Assembly: GCA_965202665.1 (NCBI GenBank)
Contig: OZ241841.1
Span: forward strand, 640,001-704,000
DNA length: 64,000 nt
Reading direction: 5' to 3'
Origin: Candidatus Spongiisociaceae bacterium
GTDB taxonomy: Bacteria; Actinomycetota; Acidimicrobiia; Spongiisociales; Spongiisociaceae
This document shows positions 59,647-61,470 of this stretch, piece after piece. Every line of letters begins with the position of its first letter. The stretch's first letter is position 1. Under the pieces are notes generated by a model that saw nothing but the letters and a program-made list of their open reading frames with translations, was not told the DNA's origin and did not search any database. Made by a program: the position numbers and the translations under genes.

Positions 59647-59879
59647 TTTTCCCTCCCCGTTCTCGAGCCATCCGCCCCGGGCGACAGCCGCAGGACAACG
59701 GATACTCTACCCCGCCCCCGCAAAAACCCCGGCATCCCCCCGCGGGCGAAGAAATTCCGGGATTCGGACGCAACCATTCCCTCCTCCATATAGATTTGTC
59801 GCACACGCCTTCTAGACCGAAAGGCGATAACCCCTAACAGGGGGCGTACCAGCCCCCACCGAGCATGGAGGAAAGAAAA

Positions 59880-61470
59880 ATGTCCAACGAGAGAGAGAGA
59901 GAGAGAGAGAGAGAGAGAGAGAGAGAGAGAGAGAGAGAGAGAGACTTCTGAGCCGGAAGTCAACAGTTTGCACTATGGCGACTGTTTAGAGGTCATGGGG
60001 CAGTGGCCCGCGGACTTCGTCGACCTCATATACCTCGACCCGCCTTTCAACTCTAAGGCACATTACAATATCATCTTCGGTCAACAGCAACGCGAAGAAA
60101 GTAAGATAGCGCAAGTCCGCGCCTTCGAGGACACTTGGCATTGGGACGAATCAGCTATTTCTCGTGTAGATCGTCTCAGGAAGTCCCCAGGGTATGAACA
60201 ACGCAAAAAATTGTTTGGAGCTTTGTATATATTCCCCGGTCCTTCTGGATTATTATCCTATCTATCTTACATGGCTGAACGATTGACCGAATATCAACGT
60301 ATTCTGAAAACTACTGGTAGCATATATTTTCACTGCGACCCTACATCTAGCCATTATTTGAAACTAGTGATGGACGCCATCTTCGGGGCGGACAACTTCC
60401 GCAACGAAATTATTTGGGATTACAAGAAGGTGTCCAACTCTAAAGCGCGCAAGTTCCTCCGGGCGCACGACATCATCTTGTTTTACACCAACTCCGAAAA
60501 ATACACGTATAACGAACTGTACGATTCGGAGTTGTCGCCCCGGAAGCAACAGTTGGTAGATGCAGGCTACAACACGAAGCGGATGAAGGGCGATCGCTAC
60601 CTGTATGTATACGACCAGGCGAAGGTGGATCAGCGGGTGGCCGACGGGCGGTTGCGTTTGGAGGACTTCGATATTGTCCGGGAAGTGGATACAACCAAAG
60701 GCAATCGGTTCACCGACGTGTTCAGTATCAACTTCACCAACCCGCAGTCCAAAGAATATATCGGCTACCCCACCCAGAAACCCACGGCACTCCTCGAACG
60801 CATCATTAACTCATCTACCAACCCGGGTGATGTGGTGTTAGACCCGTTCTGCGGATGTGGCACGACTGTTAAAGCGGCCGATAACCTAAACAGAAAATGG
60901 CTAGGTATTGATATTAGCGTGTTGGCTGTAGACATAATACTTAGCCGCTTGGAAGGACGTAAAATCCCTGTTTCGGGTTTGCCAGCAGACTACACCGCAA
61001 CGCAGAGACTAGCTAAAGATTCTTGGTCCGAATTCGAAAGGTGGGCGGTTACCCGACTAGATGGGTTCGCTCCCAACGATAAGCAGACAGGCGATGGCGG
61101 CATCGATGGTCGGGGGGTGATTCTCGGCGAGGCACCGGATGGACTGAACGCCGATGTATTGGTTCAAGTAAAAGGAACAAAATCTATCGCCATAGATGCA
61201 GTTCGAGCCTTCCGCGGAGTAGTAGAACGCGAAAAAGCAACATGCGGATTGTTTATCAGCCTAGCGGAAGTCCCTCGGAGCATACGTTCCGAAGCAGCTG
61301 ATATGGGTAACATAACAATAAAGGTGGAGGGTCAAGATATTGAATACCCACGTTTGCAGGTTTGGTCCATAAAAGACCTATTCAACAACCCACCTAACCT
61401 ACCTAACTTGCCTTTAATGACTGACCCCTACACTGGGGAACCGATGAGGCGGCAACAAACGATGGCCTAA
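59880..61470 (+). CDS. Beta-class N4/N6 DNA methyltransferase fused to a C-terminal Mrr-like PD-(D/E)xK domain; frameshifted at the (GA)n tract (main ORF 59968-61470)
   Basis: LHYGDCL, DLIYLDPPFNS, FEDTW, HCDPT, YPTQKP, LDPFCGCGTT, then DGGIDG..VLVQVKG. The SD-led ATG frame stops at TGA 59949-59951. Confidence 0.9.
59889..59944 (+). repeat. (GA)28 dinucleotide microsatellite in the 5' end of the methyltransferase gene
   Basis: 56 nt counted directly; starts at the fourth codon after ATG 59880. Confidence 0.95.

Follow-up and report, generated by a model that had tools for sequence, protein, structure and literature searches.

A tract of 28 GA units near the start of a gene coding a predicted DNA methyltransferase joined to a Mrr-type nuclease is, with a probability of roughly 0.8, a slipped-strand on/off switch controlling a stand-alone restriction-modification (RM) enzyme made of one protein. 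The gene lies in the window, the whole stretch of 64,000 nucleotides analysed here, which belongs to the 2.77 Mb single-contig genome (G000) of an uncultured sponge-associated actinobacterium of the Spongiisociaceae. The firmest part of this reading is that the tract acts as a switch, which is very probable. That the nuclease is functional and directed by the central domain of the protein is rather likely, and defence is the role to which the data lean to a similar extent.

A GGAGG ribosome-binding site (59867..59871, + strand) is found 8 nt 5' of the ATG at 59880, and a second in-frame ATG is present at 59865. The codons ATG TCC AAC for Met-Ser-Asn (59880..59888, +), residues with which the ortholog P0123 also begins, are followed by the perfect (GA)28 tract (59889..59944, +). 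The tract is in frame if the number of units leaves a remainder of 2 on division by three. With 28 units the frame of ATG 59880 ends after 23 amino acids at a premature TGA (59949..59951, +), as the letters had been read in the sequence-only reading of this DNA. Its statement that 26 or 29 units open the frame was borne out when the repeat number was changed in silico: 20, 23, 26, 29, 32 or 35 units give a frame of 524-534 amino acids (528 and 534 for 26 and 29) that ends at the natural stop codon (61468..61470, +), and all other numbers tested give just 19-39 amino acids. The tract is the sole GA or TC run of more than 5 units in G000; since about 1e-28 such runs are expected from base composition, it is not a product of chance.

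The gene has a G+C content of about 43-53%, compared to 64-77% in its flanks. It is bordered by ddl, coding D-Ala-D-Ala ligase (58570..59646, - strand), to the left in divergent orientation, and by a murF-like Mur ligase gene (61508..63082, -) to the right in convergent orientation, both assigned by Pfam. The murF-ddl order is retained in G004, G009, G013 and G015 with no methylase-Mrr gene in between, a different beta methylase without repeat adjoins ddl in the sister species G001, and a related contig of sequencing run X1 has 1267 other letters in the gap. The murF-ddl gap is thus a variable site. The locus is present in sponge and marine metagenomes and is deeply covered in public runs. Two further features of the window were recorded. 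A run of 33 G at 404-436 (L176) is found at the 3' end of a 588-aa frame, so that a change of its length would alter the carboxyl terminus; this frame has a signal-peptide-like start and Thr-rich stretches and gave no Pfam, PADLOC or NCBIfam match. Positions 57196-58236 (-) hold a helical ORF of 347 aa that is rich in Ala and Trp, bears a lipoprotein-like signal (LAATAC) and has no Pfam match.

Predicted enzyme and its recognition domain

The frame behind the tract is predicted to code a beta-class N6/N4 DNA methyltransferase and a nuclease domain in a single chain. Pfam matches, motif order and a structure model all point to this arrangement, which the sequence-only reading had anticipated. 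Pfam assigns residues 18-324 to N6_N4_Mtase (E 7e-50) and residues 352-451 to Mrr_cat (E 2e-10). Methyltransferase motif IV, DPPF (residues 24-27; 60037..60048, +), is kept in 119-120 of 120 homologs at each residue. It is followed by a variable central region, the putative target-recognition domain (60418..60753, +), and by the AdoMet-binding motif I, DPFCGCG (residues 292-298; 60841..60861, +), an order which is that of the beta class. A DPPF motif IV goes with adenine methylation. The predicted PD-QxK nuclease domain of the Mrr type (61021..61320, +) displays E357, D376, D380, Q400 and K402 (numbering of the 500-aa frame). Type II and type III methylase models of PADLOC match the protein, and REase_MTase_IIG is absent among the best 25 of 71 PADLOC matches.

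The structure was modelled for P0123, a natural in-frame ortholog, from 118 sequences (pLDDT 83.9); this model replaced an earlier poor one from 18 sequences (pLDDT 55.5). Its residues 15-332 match CcrM, RsrI, BceJIV and MboIIA with Z scores of 24.5-24.9. Residues ~334-484 match the nuclease domains of AspBHI, MspJI and LlaBIII with Z scores of 8.1-8.6, values of 8-9 being close to the usual range for the comparison tool. The two domains account for residues 17-477, and the amino terminal (ER)n tail forms a helix that is modelled with low confidence and lies apart from the fold. A loose alignment of the model (rmsd 9.6-9.9) to 4zcf_B and 6k0w_B extends into the carboxyl terminal domains of type III Mod proteins, which may perhaps be a relic nuclease fold.

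A helicase-motif ORF comes next in none of the 85 homolog loci with 2.5 kb of downstream sequence, compared to four of the four true type III mod genes of G000, and no neighbour gene recurs beyond 4 of 141 homolog loci. The lack of a Res or helicase partner, the carboxyl terminal position of the nuclease and the beta motif order identify a stand-alone fusion that has neither the type III nor the type IIG layout. The layout is widespread: among 8000 proteins scored, at least 7984 match at E<=1e-40.

Fifteen close orthologs are 84-96% identical to the window protein over residues 10-150, 77-100% over residues 263-335 and 79-100% over residues 336-500; over residues 151-262, 13 of them display just 15-36% identity. 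The 16 genes fall into 7 groups of central-domain alleles that are discordant with the tree of the protein core (e.g. P0003 joins P0006 at 96/96 support), and the allele of the window is 55% identical to that of the distant P0011. Conserved ends around a different centre are the pattern that defines phase-variable mod groups in a 2018 survey (PMC5909438); its threshold of more than 90% identity at the ends, which here span 77-100%, is exceeded by many, not all, pairs. Because the recognition domain changes and the nuclease is constant, the nuclease most simply has no site of its own and likely shares the aim of the central domain. From the swapped recognition domains we infer that phage defence is favoured over epigenetic regulation.

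The same switch could instead act on a methylase with an inactive or DNA-binding carboxyl terminal domain and a mainly gene-expression role, or on an enzyme that cuts foreign-methylated DNA like Mrr, independently of the central domain. These variants appear unlikely, although they have to be weighed. The carboxyl terminal stretch that matches Mrr_cat is also matched by NA-iREase1, an inactive family (E 2e-7), and the loose alignment running along type III Mod to its carboxyl terminus would suit a methylase without nuclease activity. Against this, the F-E, D-x-G-x-D and Q-x-K motifs have all five of their residues intact in 115 of 120 listed homologs, at ~45% identity, and these E/D/D/Q/K residues that define Mrr nucleases are those needed by LlaGI (PMC2790908). 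Cutting of modified DNA would fit with the modification-dependent MspJI and AspBHI being among the best structural matches, but such enzymes use a reader domain and Pfam gives N6_N4_Mtase, Mrr_cat and NA-iREase1 alone, with no winged-helix or SRA domain. As to a regulatory role, the pattern of a variable tract together with allelic central domains has, according to the authors of the 2018 survey, always proved to mark control of a phasevarion (PMC5909438), but the other repeat-bearing genes of G000 are of defence types (I, III, IIG, ISP and DUF1156/HmaB).

Tract length among strains and start of translation

Tract length differs between strains, with 12, 13, 14 and 28 units and both frame states represented. 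Contig record 17 of run X6 spans the tract and has 40 letters against 72 in the window over 59881-59952 (-32 nt, ~12 units), and record 23 of X7 is 30 nt shorter over the same interval (~13 units), unit numbers that are inferred from contig offsets across a masked repeat. These offsets put both genes out of frame regardless of the position of the missing letters. At the protein level P0123 and P0129 have Met, nine E/R residues and then the enzyme, which corresponds to 14 units in frame, and P0002 and P0125 have the amino terminal reading frame expected from 12 units, out of frame; these numbers presume pure GA codons. Orthologs with ER tracts of other lengths, which the sequence-only reading had proposed to look for, are thus found in either state. 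When the window gene is given 12 or 14 units its amino terminus becomes identical to that of P0002 and P0123, respectively. X6 may be of the same strain as P0002 and P0125. Among the 16 other ortholog records, 4 are called across the tract and 12 begin at an internal Met that leaves it out of sight. A second protein search with residues 1-140 gave no additional close orthologs, the window query found no ortholog in 40 relatives (best matches 41-50%, at other loci), and viral contigs gave 0 matches to the tract junction.

The tract would not gate expression if translation restarted at TTG 59968 (59968..59970, +), Leu21 of the in-frame protein and the first ATG, GTG or TTG of the long frame, or if frameshift suppression made the 28-unit state leaky. 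Both routes are improbable. A start at the TTG, which has a weak GGAAG upstream, would cost just two residues ahead of the first beta-strand, modelled at S20-Y23 in P0123. However, X7 and the deeper of the two X4 alleles have CTG at this codon, showing that a Leu is conserved and not a start; GGAAG lies within a predicted 8-bp RNA hairpin (59943..59961, +; MFE and centroid, whole-region z -2.35); and homologs begin 4-10 residues before YGDCL. A start at ATG 59995 would leave the P0123 model without its first strand and without the GDCL helix. Leaky OFF states of an AG repeat are described for a Mycoplasma mod reporter, but the leak fell at native promoter strength, and that reporter used an A5T motif within the coding region (10.64898/2026.04.01.715767), a motif found here 5' of the ATG.

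It is also quite doubtful, and slightly more so, that the sampled population carries 26 or 29 units throughout, with the gene permanently ON, and that 28 is a miscount. Long dinucleotide tracts are error-prone in assembly, and the number 28 is an assembly consensus rather than a count from spanning reads. The Logan contigs of X1 (the run that best matches the window), X3 and X5 terminate within the tract; X3 (depth 2) is identical in every letter and X1 is perhaps the source sample, neither being taken as independent. Out-of-frame lengths nevertheless recur in independent assemblies, and among the 20 RM genes with repeats in G000, 13 are clearly out of frame, near the 2:1 expected at random. 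A miscount would alter the present state of the gene, not the existence of a variable tract.

Upstream of the gene, a 22-nt segment with a 6-bp hairpin (59840..59861, +) is present in single copy without insert in the window and in X7. In X4 and X6 it is doubled around an insert of ~51 nt that bears a promoter-like TTGACT-N17-TAGGGT motif. No close second copy of the segment is found in G000, which has one match with 3 mismatches. A promoter scan of the + strand gave no consensus and nothing above shuffled sequences, and the window lacks the X4/X6 insert, so that the gene may be poorly transcribed whatever its frame. Gain or loss of the insert between the 22-nt direct repeats in X4 and X6 is a possible second, transcriptional layer of variation.

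Repeats across the genome and the family

Runs of G or C in G000 have a bimodal length distribution: 96 are of 8 nt, one is of 9, none is of 10 and 75 are of at least 11 (66 of them of 11-13). Of the 84 long repeats of the genome 28 are in methylase or HsdS frames, which make up 3% of its length, and 24 are placed between TTGACA and a -10-like box. Seven family searches identified 39 methylase or HsdS frames, 21 of which were flagged as repeat-bearing; 20 remain after removal of one double count, an hsdM whose match was the tract of the neighbouring hsdS. Random placement gave a mean of 2.2 flagged frames and a maximum of 10 in 10,000 trials, compared to the 21 observed, under a null that takes no account of base composition. 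The repeat-bearing genes span types I, III, IIG and ISP, DUF1156/HmaB and beta fusions; 13 of the 20 are clearly out of frame, 5 are in frame and 2 are ambiguous.

Tracts of (GA)9 or longer are found in 17 of 28 genomes of the family; in the rest of the order they occur in 1 of 32 genomes. The genomes without any include G028 and G039. Among the matches listed, 28 GA tracts of the family divide into 20 in RM or methylase genes, 2 in other PADLOC candidates and 6 elsewhere. The first 30 of 81 poly-G tracts of G001 comprise 17 of promoter type, 9 in RM genes and 4 that are neither. These genome and family counts are descriptive since kin genomes are not independent. A survey of poly-G outside the family (8 of 32 genomes) was confounded by runs at contig ends and is not used as evidence. 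The repeat was also considered as a trait of the whole enzyme family and this was rejected: 8 of 170 homolog loci have a repeat of some kind within the gene or directly upstream of it, and 0 have GA after the start. The switch thus belongs to the lineage and not to the enzyme family. A slipped-strand switch on a single-chain methyltransferase-nuclease, put forward in the sequence-only reading, is supported by the lengths in different strains, but it does not stand alone, being one of ~20 in the genome and part of a family-wide trait.

That chance expansion of repeats in a repair-poor symbiont disables dispensable genes by neutral decay is the least probable explanation: the ortholog P0124/P0126 is broken elsewhere in the gene, as is one hsdM of G000, and defence genes are dispensable, but an intact 500-codon frame follows the tract, run lengths are bimodal, long repeats are concentrated in methylase/HsdS frames and -35/-10 spacers, and in-frame alleles exist.

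Several other repeat arrangements were observed. The 24 promoter-type poly-G runs of G000 are of 11-13 nt and lie between TTGACA and a TAG-type -10 box (e.g. C1:486753, 1013927, 1579495); together with the 17 of 30 in G001 (L302-L327) they probably form a large family of phase-variable promoters. In region C1:1212000-1232900 of G000 (L178) type ISP genes lie in tandem, three to four in number. Every one of them has a single poly-G tract early in the gene, and as many as three others fall in its carboxyl terminal specificity region; such genes could switch specificity besides on/off state, in the manner of H. pylori JHP1272. The same layout is repeated in G001 (L328-L331), and GA tracts occupy similar positions of ISP genes in G008, G015, G018, G023 and G042. 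Among seven DUF1156/HmaB adenine methylase genes of G000 (C1:455000-468000 (L174), 331506, 390586 and 2606199; three in tandem), five bear poly-G/C, (AC)12 or (CAACA)12 repeats. Several of these share the position after DUF1156 where G004, G009 and G013 have GA tracts, a single site at which different repeat units were gained repeatedly. An hsdS gene has two poly-C tracts, one 5' of each recognition domain and both out of frame (G000:C1:1870408 and 1871045; L181).

Repeats are also found in genes other than methylases: PDC-M33A defence candidates, a HmaA-like helicase gene (1927360), the end of a SspB gene (1379718), a SspD-like ORF and a DUF6395 gene. The loci of such repeats include G000:C1:364092 and 2346189, L159 and L152 of G004 and L160 of G001. 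Scattered methylase-Mrr homologs of other phyla have poly-G/C or (CT)11 in or just before the gene (L264:4130-4143, L210:1910-1920, L005:2271-2281, L284:3890-3904 and L233:3903-3924).

Proposed mode of action and known systems

Slippage by 2 nt during replication would shift cells among three frames, one of them ON and two OFF. ON cells would produce a protein of ~530 amino acids with a dispensable (ER)n tail, which would methylate a site set by its central domain, probably at adenine given the DPPF motif. The nuclease would likely be aimed at unmethylated sites by the same domain. Because both activities would share one recognition domain, a single switch could toggle them together without self-cleavage. 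The ~20 switches of the genome would create in the population a mosaic of methylation and restriction types acting chiefly against phage, effects on gene expression being a possible by-product.

The mechanism itself is known. Repeat-switched methylases are described for type III (PMC5909438), type I (PMC7383803) and type IIG (PMC4889913, PMC3936762) systems, environmental species included. Type III mod genes resemble the gene studied here in their beta-class methylase, a frame-shifting repeat in the 5' coding region with strain-variable length, conserved ends with a swapped central domain and, in Mycoplasma, an AG/GA unit (PMC5909438). They differ in having a res helicase-nuclease gene as partner, where the gene of the window is flanked by ddl and a Mur ligase gene and codes its own carboxyl terminal Mrr-type domain, in an uncultured sponge-associated host.

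The methylase of type IIG enzymes is gamma-class. The enzyme described here is beta-class, its nuclease is carboxyl terminal and its gene carries a GA tract where the phase-variable type IIG genes of C. jejuni and H. pylori have a homopolymer. One polypeptide under one repeat switch is a feature common to the phase-variable type IIG proteins Cj0031 of C. jejuni (PMC4889913) and JHP1272/HP1353-54 of H. pylori (PMC3936762), and switching of Cj0031 altered both phage restriction and transcripts (PMC4889913). The type IIG nuclease is amino terminal, as in RM.BpuSI (PMC3185434) and JHP1272 (PMC3936762). The F-E, D-x-G-x-D and Q-x-K motifs and the nuclease fold are common to the type ISP enzymes LlaGI and LlaBIII, to Mrr and to MspJI (PMC2790908, PMC12707154). 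In contrast to ISP enzymes the protein has no helicase, and in contrast to Mrr and MspJI it has no winged-helix or SRA reader, the nuclease being fused behind a beta methylase.

Single-chain phase-variable RM enzymes such as Cj0031 and JHP1272 being already described, novelty resides in the layout of the enzyme, the lineage of its host and the scale, none of which was met in the literature searched. No characterised enzyme with a beta methylase-carboxyl terminal Mrr layout and no account of phase variation in a sponge symbiont were found there, in main texts that are mostly open. The parts examined of two reviews (PMC13076061, PMC12707154) have no such fusion. Relatives may be among the RM genes with repeats that are tabulated in the supplements of PMC5909438 and PMC7383803. 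Sponge-associated UBA5794 actinobacteria are reported as RM-enriched, in an account whose consulted sections do not mention repeats or phase variation (PMC12008989).

As to scale, the 2018 survey reports up to 4 phase-variable type III genes per species (PMC5909438). The multi-switch methylome of H. pylori is the closest likeness, with tracts in many RM types and sometimes two per gene; that study deals with seven uncharacterised phase-variable methylases in two strains (PMC3936762), compared to 20 candidate genes in G000. Only tentatively, then, an uncharacterised and widespread class of one-protein enzymes would here be one dial of a combinatorial methylome of ~20 switches across RM types I, III, IIG, ISP and DUF1156/Hma, exceeding in scale what is reported for host-adapted pathogens. 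If this is true, the ~20 switches would allow in principle up to about a million defence or epigenetic states per host.

Most work on repeat-switched methylases concerns pathogens of humans and animals. Why environmental bacteria have them is a question raised in the 2018 survey, which reports low allele diversity in such bacteria (PMC5909438). In the sponge-associated lineage tract length varies and recognition-domain alleles are numerous, both in an enzyme whose layout recurs in thousands of homologs. Its single-contig genome and deep public coverage are suited to a comparison of tract length and methylation read by read in an uncultured symbiont, from which new methylase specificities may emerge.
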